A stretch of DNA of 64,000 nucleotides from a virus (IMGVR_UViG_2565956830_000008:20953-84952); one strand, 5' to 3'. Numbered from the stretch's first letter, positions 17,202 to 28,042 are shown. The notes: a model not told the origin generated them from the sequence alone. Numbers and translations are program-made.

Positions 17202-18794
17202 CTACCGGCCGATACGGCGCCCGTACGGGGACGCCGGCCGGTTCGGCTGCACACTGCCCGGTATGCCGCTGCGGGCGCCGCCCTGGGGGGCCTGCGCGAG
17301 CGGGGCGTGGACGATGGCGCCCGCGTTGGCCTCCGGGATCAGCCCGTACACGAGGACACAGGAGGCGTCGATCCGGCCCGGCGAATCGGGGTCCGTGGGC
17401 TGCCAGGTCGACCACTCGCGTTCCATGTCGGGGAACAGGCCACGGAAGCGGACCTTGTCCTGCACCATCTGCTGGGCGATCGGCTCCGCCCGCAGCAACT
17501 TCCCCTGCTTGGCCCGCACCGGCAGGATCGCCGGCATGAGGACGTTCTTGGGTATCTCCTCGTCCCGCTGGAGCTTCTCCCACGACGTCTGGATCGCCAA
17601 CACACACATGTCCCGGCCGAAGTTCCACTCGACGTAGATGATCGACGCGTTCGTGCGGTACGCGAGCCGACAGGCGGCCATGGACCACTCGGCCGACGAC
17701 ATCGGCGCCGACACGTCGTCGGTGATCCACACGCGGCCGTCGTCGCCGAGGAAACCACCGATGACACCGGCAACGTCCCGGCCGCCACCCGACGGGTCGA
17801 TCGACACGGCGATCTTCTGCGGCTCCACGGGCGTGGTGGTGTCACGCAGCAGGCGCAGCAGTTCCTCGGACACAAGCGCTCCTTCACCAGGCTGGGGGTC
17901 GCCCTGGTAGAGGGCGTGCCAGTCCCGGACGATCGACGTTGCCTTCTTCTGCGCCCACCACGCCTTCAACCTGGCGACGGCCCGGCTGGGGATCTTCGGG
18001 TGGGGCAGCGGCTCCCCGGGCTCGCGGCCGAGCGGGTCCTCGCCGAACTTGGGGTCGGCGACCGCGGGGAGGTGGATCACCTTCCACCGGCCGCCGTCCT
18101 CGATGCGGCCCTCTTCCTGGATACGGCGCCCGGCGAAATCGTCGGGGTGCCAGCGGGTCTGGATCGCCACCACGGCGCTGCGGTCGGGCTGGAGGCGGGA
18201 CAGGGCCGCCGAGCTGTACCAGTCGTGCAGGGCACGCCGTGCGGCCTCCGATTCGGCGTCGGCGCGGTCCTTGTGCGGGTCGTCGATGATCAGAAGGTTC
18301 ACGTCGAAGCCGGTGAGGCCCTTGCCGACGGACACTGAGCGGCAGCCGCCGCCCGCGGTGACCTCCCAGTCCTGCATCGCCCCGGAGCCGGGCTTCATCC
18401 GCAGCTCCCACTCGTCGCCGTACTCCTCGACGTAGCCGCGGATCCTCTTGCCGCGCCGGAGCGCCAGGTCGTCGCCGTACGAGGTGACCGCGACCTTGTC
18501 CACGGGGAACGTGCACAGCCACCAGAACGGGAACCACTCCGCGACCGTCGTGCTCTTCCCGACCTGGGGCGGGGTCAGGATCAGCAGCCGGTCGTACTCG
18601 CCCCGCCCCACCTCGGCCAGCGCATCGCCGATGAGCTTCAGGTGCGGGCGCATCCGGAAGTTCCGGTCGAGGCCGCGGGCGAGCGTCACCGGATCCCGCA
18701 GCAGGTCAGCGCTCATCGCCCGGCGTGCCGCCTCCAGCTGCCGGTAGACCTCCTCGTCATCCTGGTGTGCCAGCTCGTCCACGGCCGTCGTCAC
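17202..18794 (-). CDS. terL: Terminase large subunit
   Basis: Walker A PPQVGKST, Walker B LLIIDD, QTRWH..D, nuclease SIDPS and terminal SPGRIDA. Confidence 0.95.
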   Translation of the reverse strand: MTTAVDELAHQDDEEVYRQLEAARRAMSADLLRDPVTLARGLDRNFRMRPHLKLIGDALAEVGRGEYDRLLILTPPQVGKSTTVAEWFPFWWLCTFPVDKVAVTSYGDDLALRRGKRIRGYVEEYGDEWELRMKPGSGAMQDWEVTAGGGCRSVSVGKGLTGFDVNLLIIDDPHKDRADAESEAARRALHDWYSSAALSRLQPDRSAVVAIQTRWHPDDFAGRRIQEEGRIEDGGRWKVIHLPAVADPKFGEDPLGREPGEPLPHPKIPSRAVARLKAWWAQKKATSIVRDWHALYQGDPQPGEGALVSEELLRLLRDTTTPVEPQKIAVSIDPSGGGRDVAGVIGGFLGDDGRVWITDDVSAPMSSAEWSMAACRLAYRTNASIIYVEWNFGRDMCVLAIQTSWEKLQRDEEIPKNVLMPAILPVRAKQGKLLRAEPIAQQMVQDKVRFRGLFPDMEREWSTWQPTDPDSPGRIDASCVLVYGLIPEANAGAIVHAPLAQAPQGGARSGIPGSVQPNRPASPYGRRIGR

Positions 18795-18797
18795 GGG

Positions 18798-19394
18798 CTA
18801 CGCCTCCTCGTCCTCGTCGTCGCTGCCGTCCACGGCCTTGATCCGCTGGTTCACCGACGCCGCCAGCTCACTCAGGCGGGCACGCCGCTGCTCCGGCGGC
18901 ATCTGCGCGAACTCGGCGAACTGGTGCGCCAGCGCGTTGGTGCCCTCGCTGGTGACGGCGATCGTCTCCGTGGGGTCACCGAACAGGACACGCCGGTGCC
19001 GCATCGCGACGTCCATCAGCCGGATGAAGTCACCGGCCGACAACTCGGCCGCGTTCAACGTCGTCAGCCGCTGCGCCAGCTTGCCGATCGCTGCGCCGAG
19101 GATCTTCGCGTCGGTCTCTGCGGCCCTGCGGCGCTCCTCCAGCCACATCGCCTCGTACTGCCGGTCCAGGTGCCGGTCGTAGGCCTCGACGCGCTCACGC
19201 CACCGGTACTGGGCGGCGAGGTTCCTCACGTGCCCGTACGCGAGTGTCAGCCTCCGTGCGGCTTCGGTCAGGGTGCGGGTCCTGCCGAGGTCCCTGTAGG
19301 TGGCGAACTGTCCGTGTTTGTGGGGGGTCTCGTTGGGCTGACGTTCCCACGGGTCGAGTTCGGGGCTCAGGGTGATGGGTGGACGGGTGCTCAT
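18798..19394 (-). CDS. Probable terminase small subunit (198 aa)
   Basis: WERQPNET...F..YRDLG..RTL HTH-like N-terminus, immediately upstream of TerL. Confidence 0.75.
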   Translation of the reverse strand: MSTRPPITLSPELDPWERQPNETPHKHGQFATYRDLGRTRTLTEAARRLTLAYGHVRNLAAQYRWRERVEAYDRHLDRQYEAMWLEERRRAAETDAKILGAAIGKLAQRLTTLNAAELSAGDFIRLMDVAMRHRRVLFGDPTETIAVTSEGTNALAHQFAEFAQMPPEQRRARLSELAASVNQRIKAVDGSDDEDEEA

Positions 19395-19606
19395 GTGGCC
19401 CGTTCCTCCCGTCGTGCGGTGCCTTCGTAGCGGTAGAGCCATAGGGGGCCGTCGTCTGCCGGGTTCACGTGACGCCGGTAGACGAGTCGGTAGCCGTCGG
19501 CGTTGCGGAGCTCGCAGGTGTGGGGCGGGTTCCAGGGGTCTGCGGGGATGGCGAGGAGTTGCCCGTCGACGGGTCCGCCCGCGAACTGGATGCCGACGCT
19601 GCTCAT
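19391..19606 (-). CDS. Small hypothetical protein (71 aa, MSSVGIQFAGGPVDG...)
   Basis: ATGA overlaps at both ends. Confidence 0.7.
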   Translation of the reverse strand: MSSVGIQFAGGPVDGQLLAIPADPWNPPHTCELRNADGYRLVYRRHVNPADDGPLWLYRYEGTARREERAT

Positions 19607-20532
19607 GACGGGTCGCTGGGGACGTGGTTGGGTCCGGAGAGGTATTCGCCGGCGAGGCGTTCGAGGAGCCGCCAGCCCTGCCCCTGCTCGATCTCGCCTC
19701 GGCCTTCTGCGGCTGCGATGGCCTTGTTGATCGTGACGGCCGCGGGTGCGGGCAGGGTGCGGGCGCCGAGGACGGTCTCGAGTCCGACGTGCCCGGAGTG
19801 GAGGTGGGTGCCGTCGGGTGCGGTGTAGCCCTCGGCGAGTTCGTCGAGGTGGCGCTCGACGATGGCGAGGATGGCGTGGAGGGCGGTGGCCACGTTGCCG
19901 ACCTTGTGCGCGGCATGTGTCGAGGCGAGCGTGTCCAGGGTCTGCTCGTAGTCGGCGCGTGCGGCGAGCCAGGACTCGTTCTGCCCGAGGCGCGCCTGGT
20001 TGAAGGCTTCGCGGGCGGCTTCGAGCTCCATGGGCAGGAAGATCAGGCTCACGGTGGCGAAGTCGAGGTTCGCTTCGGAGAGGCCTTCGGGGCTGACCTC
20101 GGCGAGGAGCTGGAGCTGTGCGTCGTCGAGGCCGGAGTAGGCCCGCCAGTCGACGTCTTCGATCTGGTCGTACAGCTGCTGGAGGGTCGCCGGGTCGTCC
20201 TTGCCGGTGATGGCGTTGTGCGACAGCTGCCGGGCGATCAGCTGGTCCTTCTCCTGCGGGTCGTCGATGAGCAGGCAGGTGATCTCGTCGAGTCCGGCTT
20301 CCACGGCCGCGTCGCACCTGTGGTTGCCGGACACGATGAGCTCGGCGCCCTCCGGGTATTCGCCGGCCCCGTAGATGAGCGGGACGGAGGTGAGGCAGCC
20401 GTCGGCCTTGATGTTGGCAACGAGCCGGTCGTACTCCTCCTTGGTCTGGTAGTGCGCGTTGACGGCGAGGCGGGTGAGGGCGCGCGGGTCGCGCTGGACG
20501 AGGCGGGGCCGGATTCGACTGCTGGTGGTCAT
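19603..20532 (-). CDS. ParB/Srx-like N-terminal domain protein (modification/packaging-associated type)
   Basis: NAHY...L..NI..DG...P, IVSGNHR motif. Confidence 0.85.
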   Translation of the reverse strand: MTTSSRIRPRLVQRDPRALTRLAVNAHYQTKEEYDRLVANIKADGCLTSVPLIYGAGEYPEGAELIVSGNHRCDAAVEAGLDEITCLLIDDPQEKDQLIARQLSHNAITGKDDPATLQQLYDQIEDVDWRAYSGLDDAQLQLLAEVSPEGLSEANLDFATVSLIFLPMELEAAREAFNQARLGQNESWLAARADYEQTLDTLASTHAAHKVGNVATALHAILAIVERHLDELAEGYTAPDGTHLHSGHVGLETVLGARTLPAPAAVTINKAIAAAEGRGEIEQGQGWRLLERLAGEYLSGPNHVPSDPS

Positions 20533-21872
20533 CGCATGTCCTTGCCGTGCTTGGTCTTCCAGAGGGTGAGCGCTTCGATCAGGTCGTAGGCGCCGAGGGG
20601 ACCGCCGTACTGGAGCTGGTAGCGGTGGATGCCGTCCGCGCCCGGCTCGGTCCGCTTCTGCAGCTTCACGCCGGGGATGCCCCGCCCGTACTTCGCGCTG
20701 TTGGGCCGGTCGGTGAACGCGGTGGTGGCCCAGCCGTCAATCCGCTTCGACAGCGAGCGTTGGACGAGGAGCTGCGCCTCCTTCGTGGAGGCGGCCATCA
20801 CGATGAGCTTCGACAGGCGCCGGTAGCGGGTCCACGACACCGGGAAGTCCGACATCAGGTAGGCGGTGTTCGGGTCGAACTTGGGCGGCAGGTAGGCGAA
20901 CGCGCCGATCAGCTTCCCGTCGACCGCCACCCCGCACGCGATCAACGGGCTGCCGGGCTTGATCGTCTTCGACATGAACTGGGAGCGGATCGCCGCGAAC
21001 TGCCCGGCGTTGAGGACGTGCAGGCTCATGCGGTCGCCGAGGTCCTCGTTCTGCCCGATCTTCGGCATGGGGATCGGCTCGACGGGCTGCCGGGGGCCGA
21101 CGATGCGGCGCGGCCCGGCCGCCGCGTACACGTAGATCGGCAGGCCGCGGTTCGCGGTCTGGACGACGCCGGCGAGCTTGTCCCGCAGCTCGGGGCGTTC
21201 GATGTGCAGGCCGAGGACCCAGTTGGGCCGGTCCTGGACCTGCTCGATGATGCGTTCCTTGCCGTCCTCGGTGAGCTCGTCGAAGGCTGGCTCGGGCCAG
21301 TTGAACGCGGCGTCGATGGACGCGAACTGCGCCTGGTAGTCCTTCGCGTAGAACGGCGGGAACATCACCACGGGGGCGTCGGCGGGCACCTCCTGGTCGA
21401 GGTAGTCGCGGACGTCGCCGGCGAAGAACGAGCCCAGCTTCGTTTGCAGGCCGCGGAGCTTGCTGGCGGTCTTGTCGTGCATCCGCTCCCACTGGTCGCG
21501 GGTGGCGTCCATCATCCGCCGGTAGTAGGCGCCGTCCTTGCCGACGTACTGGAGGAAGCGGGTGCCGAGCATGAGGGTGGCGAGGAGGTCGGTGCGGTCC
21601 TCCAGGTAGGGCTTGAGCCAGCCGAGGGACTCCTCGTACTCCTCGCGCAGGGTGTAGTTGAGGTCGTCCCCGGCGAGGTACCAGCCGAGGGCGCACGAGT
21701 ACGCCTGGATGTCGTTGCCGTGGACGCGGCGGGAGTCGCCGAACCGGGCGTGCAGCACGCGTTCGATCGTGAAGTTTCCCGAGCAGCCGACGTAGATGTC
21801 TTCGCCGGGCCACGTCCCGGCGTGCTCGTAGATGATCGAACGGAGGGGCGCGGGTATCGAGCCGTGGAACAT
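20529..21872 (-). CDS. Degenerate Dam-like Rossmann domain fused to GNAT (Mom-like) domain; putative DNA-modification/antirestriction protein (447 aa)
   Basis: AGGAG RBS before ATG 21872; YVGCSGNF (motif I), GND (II), FPPFY (altered IV); C-terminal VDGKLIGAFAY...YLMSDF...RRLSKLIV...TTAFTD...SAKY fits a GNAT pattern. Confidence 0.75.
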   Translation of the reverse strand: MFHGSIPAPLRSIIYEHAGTWPGEDIYVGCSGNFTIERVLHARFGDSRRVHGNDIQAYSCALGWYLAGDDLNYTLREEYEESLGWLKPYLEDRTDLLATLMLGTRFLQYVGKDGAYYRRMMDATRDQWERMHDKTASKLRGLQTKLGSFFAGDVRDYLDQEVPADAPVVMFPPFYAKDYQAQFASIDAAFNWPEPAFDELTEDGKERIIEQVQDRPNWVLGLHIERPELRDKLAGVVQTANRGLPIYVYAAAGPRRIVGPRQPVEPIPMPKIGQNEDLGDRMSLHVLNAGQFAAIRSQFMSKTIKPGSPLIACGVAVDGKLIGAFAYLPPKFDPNTAYLMSDFPVSWTRYRRLSKLIVMAASTKEAQLLVQRSLSKRIDGWATTAFTDRPNSAKYGRGIPGVKLQKRTEPGADGIHRYQLQYGGPLGAYDLIEALTLWKTKHGKDMR

Positions 21873-21955
21873 GGGCCGCTCCTGAAGTCCGTCTGCGCAG
21901 GTTGCGCACCTGCGCGTTTGTCGGCCCATTGTCGGCGGTCGCGTGGAATGCGGAA

Positions 21956-21984
21956 GGCCCTCCCCGGGGACTGCGGGGAGGGCC
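21956..21984 (-). terminator. GC-rich hairpin just 3' of the tRNA (processing signal or partial terminator)
   Basis: ggccctccccg...cggggagggcc 11 bp stem, about 8 nt from CCA; no U tract. Confidence 0.45.
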
Positions 21985-21991
21985 AATCGTG

Positions 21992-22066
21992 TGGAGCGCC
22001 GGCCAGGGCTTGCACCTGGATCGCCCGACTGGAAGTCGGGCCGTGTTGCCTTACACGCACCAGCGC
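21992..22066 (-). tRNA. tRNA-Gly (anticodon TCC), atypical T- and D-arms, encoded CCA
   Basis: GCGCTGG TG CGTGT AAGGCA ACACG G CCCGA CTTCCAG TCGGG CGAT CCAGG TGCAAGC CCTGG CCGGCGC T CCA: all four stems pair; G1-C72, C2-G71, G3-C70, U73 Gly identity elements. Confidence 0.93.
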
Positions 22067-22108
22067 GGGTGGCGGTCGCGCCGCTGCTCGAACGACCGGC
22101 CGATCGGG

Positions 22109-22154
22109 ATCTTACCTCAGCTCCACCGGGTGCGCAGTTCGCAGCAGTGCGCAG
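22109..22154 (-). promoter_or_regulatory. Candidate late promoter for tRNA-modification-terminase operon
   Basis: - strand CTGCGCACTGC starting 40 bp upstream of TAAGAT (-10-like), identical geometry to 15935-15980. Confidence 0.55.
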
Positions 22155-22204
22155 CGGGTTTCCCTGTGCCGAGTGGAGAGCACTTCGTGGAGCGCGGCCA
22201 AGGC

Positions 22205-23146
22205 TCAGCCCTGCCAGCAGGCGACGGCTTCGACCCGCGAGGACCGCTCGGCCTCCGCGATGATCTCGGCCATGGACAGGTCGTTGCGGAAGCGGTGCCC
22301 GATCTTCTCCTCGATGCGGGCCAGGCGGGCGGCGGGCTCCGGGTTGAGCTGAGCCGACAGCACGAGCGCCGACTTGGACGCGAGGACGCAGAACATGCAG
22401 GACAACCTTGGCATTCCGGCGAGGTATGCCGGGTGTTTGCGCAGGCCGGACGCTTCGACGGCCGCCCACACGTCGACGGTCGACCAGGTGTGCACCGGAT
22501 ACCAGACGTCGACGTGGCGGAGGGTGTTCGAGGCGCCCCAGCCGGGGCCGACGCCCTTCGGCACGGGCTGCTTGCGCGCCTTGTACTTCTCGGCCTTGGC
22601 CCGACGCGGTACGCACGCATCGCAGGGACATGTCCAGGCGCCTTCGTGGGTGAAGGCGAGCAGTTTGCGGCGGGCCGGGGACTCCTCGGCGCGTATGCCC
22701 ATGACGTTGAGGATGCGGACGCGGCCGGTGTGCCCCGCCTCTCGTGACTCTTGGACGAGGCGGGTCATCAGGGTCCGCACCGGGCCGCGCTTGAAGTCCG
22801 ATGTGCACCAGCGGTTGTCGGCGTCGGGGAACATGCCCCGCTCTTCGATCCGGTCGATGAGGTCGCCGCCCGTGCGGGCGACGACTTCGAACCGCAGCCC
22901 GTAGTAGGCGGCGTGCTCGGCGGCCAGCTCCTTCGTGCCTTCCCACTCGGCGGAACCGAGGTCGGCGTGCACGCACACGATGCGGTCGAGGACGTCGGCG
23001 TCGCGCGCGGCCCAGAACAGCTCGTAGAGCATCGCGATCGAGTCCTTGCCGCCCGAGATGTTCGCGATGATCCAGTCGTACGAGGCGAGGTCGGGGAGGT
23101 CCGACCCGAAGCCGGGCAGGTCGAATGCCAACTGCGCCGTAGACAT
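22205..23146 (-). CDS. PAPS reductase-family (PP-loop) protein
   Basis: ISGGKDS, RWCT..FK..P, GIRAEES..R, RLSCMFC. Confidence 0.9.
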   Translation of the reverse strand: MSTAQLAFDLPGFGSDLPDLASYDWIIANISGGKDSIAMLYELFWAARDADVLDRIVCVHADLGSAEWEGTKELAAEHAAYYGLRFEVVARTGGDLIDRIEERGMFPDADNRWCTSDFKRGPVRTLMTRLVQESREAGHTGRVRILNVMGIRAEESPARRKLLAFTHEGAWTCPCDACVPRRAKAEKYKARKQPVPKGVGPGWGASNTLRHVDVWYPVHTWSTVDVWAAVEASGLRKHPAYLAGMPRLSCMFCVLASKSALVLSAQLNPEPAARLARIEEKIGHRFRNDLSMAEIIAEAERSSRVEAVACWQG

Positions 23147-26230: not shown

Positions 26231-26320
26231 TGATCTACATTCATTCTTCCAAAATGAGCTTGCCCTAACCAGTTTTGTGAACCCTATTCGGCAAAAGAAC
26301 TTCTAAGAAGCCGCAGGTCA
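26231..26320 (-). repeat. Repeat R2
   Basis: tcattcttcc...cttgccctaaccagtttt...aaaagaacttctaagaagccgcaggtca. Confidence 0.9.
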
Positions 26321-28042
26321 GGCGGCCAGCTCGTATCGGCTGATCGGCTCGCCCGTGATGGCTTCGACCAGCGCGCAGTACAGGACCTCAGCCACGGCCG
26401 GGGTCACCGCGTTGCCGAGCTGGCGGACCTGGTGCCGCTTCGAGCCCATGAGCTTGTACTTCGCCCTGAAGGCCATCGCCCTCGCGATCTCGTGGGGCTG
26501 GAGCATCCTGAACAGCACGTCGTCGATCTTGAAGTCGCGGCGGACCAGTGCGTACCGGTCGCGGGTGGGGAGCGCGCCGATCGGGTCGGTGACCGGCCGG
26601 GCCTGGCCGTTGCCGTAGTACGGGACGAGCAGGTGGTCAGGCTGGGTCACGAGCCCGTGATGGTTGCCGCCGGCCGTGACCGAGTGAAGCGGCATGCCGA
26701 GGTGCCGCGCCTTCTCCTTGTCGCCGCCGCCCCGCATGGGGATCACGAACGGCAGGTAGGCGAGGGCGGTCTCCAGGCGGGCCGTCTGGGTGCGCAGCGG
26801 GTCCTCCAGCCGCATGGGCTTCTTGCCGTCGCGGCCCTCGCACGGAATCAACAGCGGCGGGAACACGATGCCGTCGGTCTCCACGGTCGTCCGGGTGGGC
26901 ATCGGCAGGTCCAGGCCGATGGCCTTCTCCCGCCAGGTCCCGCCGGCCGGGACGAGGAGCGGGCCGCCCGGCATCCCCTGGGGTGCCTCGTCGACGTCGC
27001 CAAAGAGCGAGCCCTGCCCGTCGTCGAAGAAGTCCTCACCCCAGCCCCAATACTTGGCGCCTCCGGCCCGCACGCGGGCGATCGTGGCGGGGGCGAGGCC
27101 CTCGGGGCAGTCGTCGGTCTTGGACCGGTCGCCGATCGGCGTTCCCGCGATCGAGAAGTCGATGGCGGCCGCGGCGGGGAGCACGTAGGGCTCGACGATC
27201 GCGCGGCAGCCCGAGCGCGGGCAACGGAAGTCGTAGCTCTGCCGGTAGCGACCCATGTCCCGCTTCGGGTCGCGGAAGACCTGGACGGCGCGCACCTGTT
27301 CGTCGCAGTCGGCGCACCAGGCGTCGGGGCGCAGGACCCACTTGTCGAAGTCGGGGTCGCGGCCGAGGCTCTCGTGCCAGTACACGAAGTACAGGCGGTC
27401 ACGGCTTTGCGGTACACGGTCCAGGGTGCGCGGGACGACGTGCATCGAGTTGATCGCGAGGAGCTTCGTCCGGTACCCAAGCTTGTGGAACTCGCCGACC
27501 CACCGATCCCATTGGTCCCAGCCCCGGCAGTCTGTGACGTTCTCGACGACTCCGGCCAGGACCAAGCCGCCGCGGTTGATCACGCCCCGCAAATACATGG
27601 GGACTTCTTCCATGAGGGCGCGGCTGCGCTCCTCGGCGGCCCGGCGTTCCTTGTCGCTCTTGAACTCCGGCTCTTCGAAGTCGAAATCGCCCTGCATCGT
27701 GCGGTCGAAGTCGACCTTCACGCCCCGGGCCGCCGACCACTTCGGGCACTCCGGCGACGCCCAGAAGAGCTGGCAGACCGGCCACTTCTCGACCGGGGCC
27801 CGGCGGATGTCGCCCTTCCACAGGTCGCAGTTCGGGTTGTTCCACGCGTGCGTGGCGAGTGCGACGTCCCAGTGGTTCGCGCCTCTGGTGGTCAGCACGC
27901 CGGGGACCGCGTCCGCTCCCTGCGTGTCGCCGCCAGCACCGCAGAACCAGCTCATGGCGGTCAGCACGCTGCCGTCGTGCTTGTAGGCGCGGGCCGGACT
28001 GGCGGATGCCCAGGCGCGCGTGGTGGCGTCGATGTAGGGCAT
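26318..28042 (-). CDS. C5-cytosine DNA methyltransferase
   Basis: FCGAGG (I), SPEC (IV), VENV (VI), QSRDR (VIII), QLGNAV (X). Confidence 0.93.
   Translation of the reverse strand: MPYIDATTRAWASASPARAYKHDGSVLTAMSWFCGAGGDTQGADAVPGVLTTRGANHWDVALATHAWNNPNCDLWKGDIRRAPVEKWPVCQLFWASPECPKWSAARGVKVDFDRTMQGDFDFEEPEFKSDKERRAAEERSRALMEEVPMYLRGVINRGGLVLAGVVENVTDCRGWDQWDRWVGEFHKLGYRTKLLAINSMHVVPRTLDRVPQSRDRLYFVYWHESLGRDPDFDKWVLRPDAWCADCDEQVRAVQVFRDPKRDMGRYRQSYDFRCPRSGCRAIVEPYVLPAAAAIDFSIAGTPIGDRSKTDDCPEGLAPATIARVRAGGAKYWGWGEDFFDDGQGSLFGDVDEAPQGMPGGPLLVPAGGTWREKAIGLDLPMPTRTTVETDGIVFPPLLIPCEGRDGKKPMRLEDPLRTQTARLETALAYLPFVIPMRGGGDKEKARHLGMPLHSVTAGGNHHGLVTQPDHLLVPYYGNGQARPVTDPIGALPTRDRYALVRRDFKIDDVLFRMLQPHEIARAMAFRAKYKLMGSKRHQVRQLGNAVTPAVAEVLYCALVEAITGEPISRYELAA

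Follow-up and report, generated by a model that had tools for sequence, protein, structure and literature searches.

The stretch of viral DNA analysed here, IMGVR_UViG_2565956830_000008:20953-84952 (64,000 nucleotides, hereafter the window), provides the setting of a compact unit made of a tRNA-Gly gene, the gene of a two-domain enzyme and a ParB-like gene, located in a prophage of a Streptomyces-like bacterium. With a G+C content of ~70%, the window lies inside contig C119 of an 11.76-Mb genome in 202 contigs, and its genes from about 1.7 to 46 kb are carried by the minus strand. The single tRNA called by ARAGORN in the whole 64 kb is a tRNA-Gly of anticodon tcc with an encoded CCA (21992..22066, minus strand), also recognised by Rfam and by our covariance model R1 (73.1 bits) and folding as a cloverleaf. 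Its 3' end is separated by 119 nt from the start of the next gene on the same strand, which encodes the enzyme of 447 amino acids (20529..21872, minus; AlphaFold2 mean pLDDT, the predicted local distance difference test, of 91.3). This protein combines a Dam-like class I methyltransferase fold (residues 2-272; 21057..21869, minus) with a C-terminal GNAT-fold domain (residues 280-443; 20544..21035, minus; domain model pLDDT 94.1). The enzyme stop codon overlaps the start codon (ATGA) of a gene for a ParB/Srx-like protein of 309 amino acids with an SGNHR motif (19603..20532, minus; phrog_7405, E 3e-61). The series then continues on the same minus strand with a small open reading frame (ORF) of 70 amino acids located between the ParB-like gene and TerS (19391..19603), the terminase small subunit TerS (18798..19352; phrog_6299, E 3.5e-21) and the terminase large subunit TerL (17202..18794; phrog_38, E 1e-83; Pfam Terminase_6N). 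The original prediction had described a sole tRNA-Gly(TCC) about 120 bp ahead of the enzyme gene, followed by this same gene order, and both statements are borne out, the first by ARAGORN and the second by the ORF list, Pfam and PHROGs.

The spacer between the tRNA and the enzyme gene (21873-21991, minus) is itself structured, with a folding z of -3.07. Directly 3' of the tRNA, it forms a G+C-rich hairpin with an 11-bp stem and no U-tract (21956..21984, minus), a candidate element that may act as a terminator or as a processing signal; a scan of 21700-22400 for consensus promoters and terminators returned 0 sites, although putative promoters can be picked out by eye ahead of the tRNA and of the enzyme gene. 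We ruled out an att-site remnant: the tRNA is complete, lies between a PAPS-reductase-like gene and the enzyme gene, and stands upstream of the packaging genes.

Homologues of the enzyme were gathered blind to tRNAs, yielding 171 distinct gene sequences from 207 loci, the window included, with identities ranging from 33 to 96% and origins in soil, gut and isolate genomes. They were drawn from 15 GenBank phage records (10 Mycobacterium and 5 Gordonia phages, 42-54% identity), from IMG/VR (13, then 80 loci), from species-representative genomes (31 loci, including Streptomyces, Kitasatospora, Embleya, Nonomuraea, Streptosporangium, Planomonospora and Kutzneria) and from metagenomes (80 loci, human-gut assemblies among them). 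Detection of tRNAs combined default ARAGORN with R1, a covariance model built from 87 unique ARAGORN calls; ARAGORN at 80% thresholds proved too noisy and was set aside. A tRNA-Gly or tRNA-Gly-like gene was found on the same strand within 500 nt upstream of 124 of the 171 distinct genes, with a median gap to the enzyme gene of 72 nt and a gap within 200 nt in 119 of these 124. Four further genes (4/171) have such an element further upstream and six (6/171) have it downstream in the locus, two of the latter being weak matches; five (5/171), with less than 200 nt of upstream sequence, were not assessable.

This adjacency extends across the whole range of divergence. Sorted by identity to the window protein, it is found in 45/50 genes at 70% or more, 8/9 at 50-70%, 12/28 at 40-50% and 59/84 below 40%, and among the 45 clusters defined at 70% identity, 25 have an adjacent tRNA and 6 have one elsewhere in the locus. 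Over the 1,412,834 bases that the loci comprise, a single tRNA was typed as other than Gly, a tRNA-Leu at a distance of 2.8 kb (L128). A separate later draw of 13 more distant loci provided 4 more elements (4 by R1, 2 by ARAGORN). The kit is also present in cultured phages, namely Mycobacterium phage Jeon and its relatives and the Gordonia phages Jollymon and Clawz. For instance, the GenBank record of Jeon (43% identity) annotates a tRNA-Gly(tcc) 36 nt upstream of the enzyme gene, and Jollymon carries a degenerate copy detected by R1 (54.6 bits), where ARAGORN and the GenBank record show none. Adjacency of the tRNA and the enzyme is far beyond chance, and the co-occurrence check, set beforehand, ended in a strong and specific enrichment of tRNA-Gly beside the homologues.

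In a FastTree phylogeny of 150 full-length proteins, the tRNA is found throughout the tree, its distribution needing at least 13 gains or losses, and the tRNA-less genes are found mainly in a clade of 12 members and in basal clades (31-35% identity). At many of the tRNA-less loci (L076-L087, L134, L163, L167, L198), a conserved C-H-R...W-W motif resembling DUF488 lies at the end of the immediately preceding gene, and a short protein (P0184) joins PF22559, the Pfam family of the C-terminal domain, with PF04343 (DUF488).

The tRNA itself reveals a sharp partition between positions that are kept and positions that drift. The window copy scores 43.1 bits against the Rfam tRNA model (gathering score 29), has the cloverleaf as its minimum-energy fold, and carries the complete identity set of glycyl-tRNA synthetase (GlyRS), i.e. 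G1-C72, C2-G71, G3-C70, U73, C35 and C36. Its U33 and A37 are present, and its T-loop reads UGC in place of UUC, which places a G at position 55. Constraint was counted on an R1-based alignment of 103 enzyme-linked elements. The acceptor end is nearly constant (G1 103, C2 103, G3 101, C70 102, G71 103 and C72 103 of 103), as are U73 (103/103), C35 (103/103) and C36 (102/103), and G10 (93), C50 (91) and G64 (97) are strongly kept. By comparison with bacterial glycylation determinants as described in PMC9976931, including the extra ones for Thermus GlyRS, the kept positions match. The wobble position 34 is variable (T 71, A 18, C 12, G 2), U33 is lacking in 21/103 elements, position 37 is a pyrimidine in 30/103, and position 55 is not U in 30/103, with G55 in 25/103; among the 83 ARAGORN calls of the host's own tRNAs, U33 is found in 80 and a purine at 37 in 80. 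Compensatory changes maintain the stems at 15 of 19 predicted pairs, and the elements are therefore not decaying pseudogenes. A recent host origin of the phage tRNA was ruled out, the top identity to any host tRNA-Gly being 73%.

These counts bear on the explanation in which the gene is an ordinary decoding tRNA that supplements the reading of GGA and GGG codons and stands beside the enzyme only by shared ancestry of the region. Actinophages commonly carry single tRNA genes, most of the copies have a canonical T-loop and U33, and the score of the window copy is above the Rfam threshold, all of which this explanation accommodates. However, an extra tRNA-Gly(UCC) is not called for by codon use, GGA being no commoner among the Gly codons of the phage (7.0% in 35 window ORFs) than among those of the host (8.3% in 201 host ORFs). 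The anticodons of the 124 adjacent copies are TCC in 77, CCC in 23, ACC in 20 and GCC in 1, with 3 unclear; ACC is not known as a normal bacterial anticodon, and the first base of the anticodon switches between sister rows of the protein tree (L165/L166, L062/L128, L184/L189). Also at odds with a decoding role are the frequent loss of U33, purine 37 or U55, the persistence of the linkage over protein identities of 33-96%, whether the genomes come from soil, gut or isolates, with 25 or more clusters (70% identity) showing it, and the fact that only Gly tRNAs adjoin the enzyme genes. We consequently consider an ordinary decoding tRNA to be highly improbable.

A precedent for tRNAGly used outside translation exists in staphylococci, whose non-proteogenic tRNAGly are described as having TGC or TGT for TTC in the T-loop and as binding EF-Tu weakly, with weak use by the ribosome too (Rietmeyer et al., PMC7826273), and are stated there to be known only from S. 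aureus and S. epidermidis. The NP1-3 tRNAGly of S. aureus, with FmhB, FemA and FemB, resemble the present system as extra, GlyRS-chargeable tRNAGly that serve a GNAT-type transferase outside translation, and they share the UGC T-loop with the window tRNA (PMC7826273). They differ in that the staphylococcal system is cellular with a peptidoglycan precursor as acceptor, whereas here the tRNA is viral and the presumed acceptor is DNA. Of the canonical elongator features, the cloverleaf and the identity elements are present and the set of U33, purine 37 and T54-U55-C56 is incomplete; the staphylococcal combination of a TGC/TGT T-loop with kept GlyRS identity is found in the window copy.

Outside the window, the host chromosome holds a second odd tRNA-Gly(UCC) (G000:C156:77231-77301, corresponding to L207:6232-6302) with a UGC T-loop and a C..G-closed anticodon loop. 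From its sequence, it could be a non-proteogenic (cell-wall type) tRNAGly outside staphylococci. It is flanked by saccharopine-dehydrogenase-like and endonuclease V-like genes (identified by eye), with no homologue of the enzyme nearby, and 8 of 18 genomes of the same genus carry near-identical copies. In addition, three copies of this type, two of them partial, lie within 3 kb in G006:C32, in what looks like an island integration into the tRNA.

The enzyme belongs to a protein family that is catalogued (Pfam, NCBI names) but uncharacterised. The window protein matches PF22555 (DAM-like-phage1) over residues 2-272 (E 5.5e-106, 354.3 bits against a cut-off of 27) and PF22559 (GNAT-phage-like) over residues 280-443 (E 4.7e-57, 192.8 bits against a cut-off of 27), and both Pfam domains are found in all 120 relatives among the matches listed. 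Its PHROG assignment is the function-unassigned family phrog_7858, NCBIfam offers no model for it, and the NCBI label on its relatives is 'putative antirestriction adenine methyltransferase'. The family comprises at least 498 proteins at E <= 0.001, from soil actinophages to human-gut phages. A search for stand-alone PF22559 proteins produced 74 short matches, mostly fragments on short contigs; one of them, P0135, is the C-terminal part of a full-length gene.

The C-terminal domain has a GNAT fold, as the original prediction had it: besides the PF22559 match, the top Foldseek matches of the domain are all GNATs, with a probability of 1.0. Structural comparison of the C-domain model with VIA-align placed Mom of phage Mu (8bv8_B) at rank 2 of 48,161 chains (Z 11.1, root-mean-square deviation 3.0 A, 140 aligned residues). 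Foldseek searches with the whole model and with the C-domain returned generic GNATs and methyltransferases, with Mom absent among the 50 matches listed, and a family-profile search of the sequences of solved structures yielded only spurious kinase segments (E >= 0.16). Residues R296, G323, Y338, D342, K355, L356, T383, S392, K394, Y395, R397, G398, Y422 and W438 are invariant in this domain. In Mom, the catalytic residues are R111, S124, D149 and R151, for which hhalign gave no reliable residue-level counterparts in the phage family, whose invariant R, D, K, S and Y residues are its own. The acyl-CoA loop of GNATs is marked by the motif Q/R-x-x-G-x-G/A, and this glycine-rich CoA-pyrophosphate loop is absent at its usual place in the family alignment.

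Mom provides the chemical prototype. According to Silva et al. (Nat Commun 2026, PMC13219725; bioRxiv 10.1101/2023.03.24.534169), Mu Mom is a GNAT that moves glycine from Gly-tRNAGly to the N6 of adenine in double-stranded DNA, the adduct rearranging afterwards to N6-carbamoylmethyl-dA, and every E. coli tRNAGly isoacceptor serves in the reaction. Fem transferases also take Gly-tRNAGly (PMC7826273), and the chemistry given for Mom and Fem in the original prediction is correct in the light of these two sources. Mom (PF25680; 8bv8) is likewise a phage GNAT, and evades restriction; it is described as a single-domain dimer with a helix-turn-helix-like insertion that uses host tRNAGly isoacceptors (PMC13219725). 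In contrast, the enzyme studied here has its GNAT domain fused to a Dam-like domain, a ParB-like partner and usually its own tRNA upstream.

The same kind of tRNA is found beside true Mom-family genes. A PF25680 search of 401 actinobacterial genomes gave 10 loci, 5 of them above the cut-off, and R1 revealed one element in these five (L256, G145:C24:38290-41880), a tRNA-Gly-like gene of 62.9 bits, missed by ARAGORN, that lies between a ParB-like ORF and the Mom-family gene (140 bits), all on one strand. The Mom protein of L256 was then used as a query to collect 80 IMG/VR loci. ARAGORN called a tRNA in two of them, both tRNA-Gly(tcc) on the same strand and abutting the 3' end of the Mom gene, and R1 detected elements in 9 of the 80 (7 distinct sequences, 28.5-55.9 bits), again all abutting the Mom 3' end; the tRNA is thus upstream of the Mom gene in L256 and downstream in the viral contigs. 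These Mom-linked elements start with G1/C2, paired with the corresponding 3' strand, and have U73 and a loop with TCC or ACC; G3 is also present, except in the L292/L293 sequence, where the first three bases are G-C-C. All eight Mom-locus proteins tested are PF25680 members (84-159 bits), and no other tRNA type was called in 384 kb of Mom-family loci. Two sequence-unrelated GNAT families thus have the same specific tRNA-Gly neighbour.

The IMG/VR Mom loci with an abutting tRNA-Gly-like gene fall in L292-L299 and L307-L310. The L293 contig has the metagenome identifier that PMC13219725 names for the active 'Mom Homolog A', a correspondence of identifier only. The host genome contains two further PF25680 matches (G000:C172:180177-180557, 115 bits; G000:C123:18585-19124, 85 bits), with no tRNA within 1.5 kb of either by ARAGORN or R1.

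The N-terminal domain has the overall fold of the Dam family, including its inserted helical domain, with VIA-align Z values of 12.0 against DpnM (2dpm, 197 aligned residues), 11.8 against T4 Dam (1q0s, 185) and 11.7 against EcoDam (2ore, 190); generic methyltransferases tie with the Dam members in Z, aligning about 145-155 residues only. No match to Pfam MethyltransfD12 or to any second family was obtained in this domain, even at a low threshold. It also shares with Dam enzymes a motif I-like G-x-G and the P-P-aromatic core of motif IV. The catalytic motif IV of Dam-type enzymes reads (D/N/S)-P-P-(Y/F/W). In the phage family, this position is F/Y-P-P-F, and the catalytic D/N of (D/N)PP(Y/F) gives way to F or Y: the first residue is F in 25, Y in 10, S in 1 and H in 1 of 37 sampled members, never D or N, and the window protein reads FPPF, with no catalytic D/N. 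The description of this domain as a degenerate Dam was hence accurate. Residues G29, C30, G32, E37, D54 and D153 are invariant and, given the constancy of motif I, E37, D54 and D153, an adenosine-binding pocket may persist. Some members reach ~700 amino acids through a Hint/intein insertion inside the Dam-like domain (P0023-P0027, P0037; L041, L069), and the NCBI name of these intein-bearing members is 'Hint domain-containing protein'.

Such a pocket makes room for another explanation, in which the protein is an (anti-restriction) adenine methyltransferase joined to a CoA-dependent acetyltransferase acting on a protein or a small molecule, the tRNA being a cis element (promoter, RNase P/Z site or transcript boundary) kept by synteny. 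The NCBI name of the family, the invariance of motif I, E37, D54 and D153 as in a working S-adenosylmethionine (SAM) pocket, and the hairpin directly after the tRNA are all compatible with it. It sits less well with motif IV, which begins with F or Y in 35 of 37 members and in none with D or N. The role of a processing signal, moreover, would not account for the invariance of C35, C36, U73 and the first three acceptor pairs alongside a drifting position 34, and the unrelated Mom family shows the adjacency in reverse order, its genes being followed by the tRNA. We hold this combination of methyltransferase and cis element to be quite unlikely.

The third part of the unit is the ParB-like gene, which comes immediately after the enzyme gene in 139 of the 153 loci that could be assessed. 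Besides phrog_7405, its product matches other ParB-like PHROGs (E 1e-9 to 1e-4), including a ParB-like nuclease and a ParB-methyltransferase family; it has no Pfam match, and its S-G-x-H-R motif is invariant in the protein alignment. The ParB-methylase fusions and related arrangements described in PMC5512222 similarly couple a ParB/Srx-fold protein to a DNA adenine-directed enzyme in a mobile element. They differ from the present case, where the ParB-like protein is encoded by a separate gene, translationally coupled to the enzyme gene, and lacks a Pfam match. The other neighbours are less constant: within 3-kb flanks, TerS is found in 72 and TerL in 58 of 171 loci, the ORF of 70 amino acids is recovered by tblastn in only 6 of 171 loci and is not a conserved part of the kit, and the PAPS-reductase/DndC-like gene directly upstream of the tRNA in the window (22205-23146, minus; Pfam PAPS_reduct, phrog_424) is upstream in only 18 of 144 assessable loci and probably has a separate function. 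From these neighbour counts, the conserved kit therefore consists of the tRNA-Gly, the enzyme and the ParB-like gene, and these three parts stay associated even in phages that have diverged strongly. Further DNA-modification genes seem to be present in the early region of the prophage; an ORF of 574 amino acids (26318-28042, minus), for instance, looks C5-cytosine-methyltransferase-like by eye.

The composition of the kit also informs on the possibility that the tRNA is a target or a decoy, in which the GNAT domain would act on Gly-tRNAGly (as does the toxin TacT, which acetylates it) or the enzyme would modify the tRNA, the phage copy being resistant or sacrificial, or countering host toxins that attack tRNAGly. 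A GNAT fold by itself cannot separate a donor from an acceptor role. TacT is described as reading exactly U73 and G71 of tRNAGly (PMC9976931), both invariant here, and the toxSAS FaRel2 as picking tRNAGly by its acceptor stem (PMC11245113). However, a target or decoy role leaves unexplained the fused domain of DNA-adenine-methylase type, the ParB-like partner and the place ahead of the packaging genes. It also sits poorly with the same tRNA-Gly linkage beside true Mom genes, whose prototype uses the tRNA as a donor onto DNA (PMC13219725). In addition, an acetylating toxin would require a glycine-rich acyl-CoA loop, which the GNAT domain lacks. A target or decoy role thus appears improbable to us, and is the least improbable of the alternatives considered; all three are less likely than the reading in which the phage tRNA is a private glycyl donor.

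The combined analyses make it likely that a private, weakly decoding or non-decoding tRNA, charged by host GlyRS, serves as a Mom-like glycyl donor for the GNAT domain, the Dam-like domain presenting the DNA adenine. The part played by the tRNA as a dedicated donor is one that we infer from sequence, with good support. In this mechanism, host GlyRS would charge the phage tRNA, the GNAT domain would remove glycine from the tRNA 3' end in a Mom-like manner, and the Dam-like domain would bind DNA and flip the target adenine, whose N6 would be glycylated; should the adduct then rearrange on the base as described for Mom, N6-carbamoylmethyl-dA would result. A tRNA of the phage's own, weakened in its translational features, might keep the glycyl supply from being drained by EF-Tu and the ribosome, like the staphylococcal cell-wall tRNAGly. 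The ParB-like protein, for its part, could load the enzyme onto phage DNA or guide it there near packaging, and the expected outcome would be protection from restriction.

Several observations weigh against a private glycyl donor, and concern the tRNA as much as the enzyme. No tRNA-Gly was found within about 3 kb of 32 of the 171 genes, nor in 14 of the 45 clusters at 70% identity. As the enzymes of these tRNA-less genes keep all the invariant residues, the tRNA is therefore dispensable or host-supplied. Most elements retain U33 (82/103), a purine at 37 (71/103, with 2 gaps) and UUC (73/103), and the window copy departs only at G55, so that it may still decode. The Watson-Crick pair between positions 32 and 38 (C32 in 89/103, G38 in 90/103) is not diagnostic and is not relied on here, an extended anticodon stem being drawn even for proteogenic staphylococcal tRNAGly (PMC7826273). 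ARAGORN found 0 tRNAs in the 10 actinobacterial Mom-family loci and 0 in 43 Mu-like loci, on which R1 was not run. On the enzyme side, the conserved SAM-pocket-like set of the N-domain (G-C-S-G-N, E37, D54, D153) could bind SAM and methylate. The Z of 11.1 obtained with Mom is within 1 Z unit of that of many ordinary acetyltransferases, the window enzyme has no PF25680 match (Mu Mom itself scores 253 bits), and hhalign of the C-domain profile against Mu Mom gives a probability of 2.7%. These last two results led us to drop the filing of the C-domain under the Mom family. The structure comparison with Mom that the original prediction suggested thus yields a high rank, in a tie with other GNATs, and no membership at the sequence level. 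Finally, a variant from IMG/VR (L123/L124) that lacks the GNAT domain still has a tRNA-like gene. This variant has 352 amino acids, with the Dam-like domain followed by an unrelated short C-terminus, a tRNA-Gly-like element upstream (52.6 bits) and terminase-like ORFs downstream.

A broader proposal can be put forward tentatively, as a possibility to which we give slightly less than an even chance. Phages of several lineages would encode a tRNA mainly for the non-translational carrying of glycine, one that remains chargeable by GlyRS and drifts away from use by EF-Tu and the ribosome, and at least two unrelated GNAT families (the Dam-like/GNAT family and part of Mom) would draw on it for the aminoacylation of adenine in phage DNA. 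Co-evolution would have given the enzyme a preference for its private tRNA, which would be the viral counterpart of the staphylococcal cell-wall tRNAs; the disabled Dam would act as an adaptor that flips the base, and the ParB-like protein would tie the modification to the DNA that is to be packaged.

Our literature search brought up no published account of a tRNA gene in linkage with these enzymes, in agreement with the original prediction, which knew of no such cassette. The main text of PMC13219725 makes no mention of phage tRNA genes, fusions, ParB or gene neighbourhoods, and its supplementary gene contexts may bear on this point. Hypermodification of DNA that depends on a tRNA has recently been established for one enzyme only, Mu Mom, which uses host tRNA. 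If the reading proposed here is true, a much larger and different enzyme family performs related chemistry, with phages bringing their own donor tRNA. The phage tRNA would then be the first one of viral origin devoted to a reaction outside translation and only the second known case of 'non-proteogenic' tRNAs, and a class of solitary, unusual tRNA-Gly genes in phages would be explained. Natural enzyme-tRNA pairs would also become available for the site-directed labelling of DNA, and unrecognised adenine adducts would be predicted in the DNA of many phages, with a bearing on restriction, sequencing and host-range studies.

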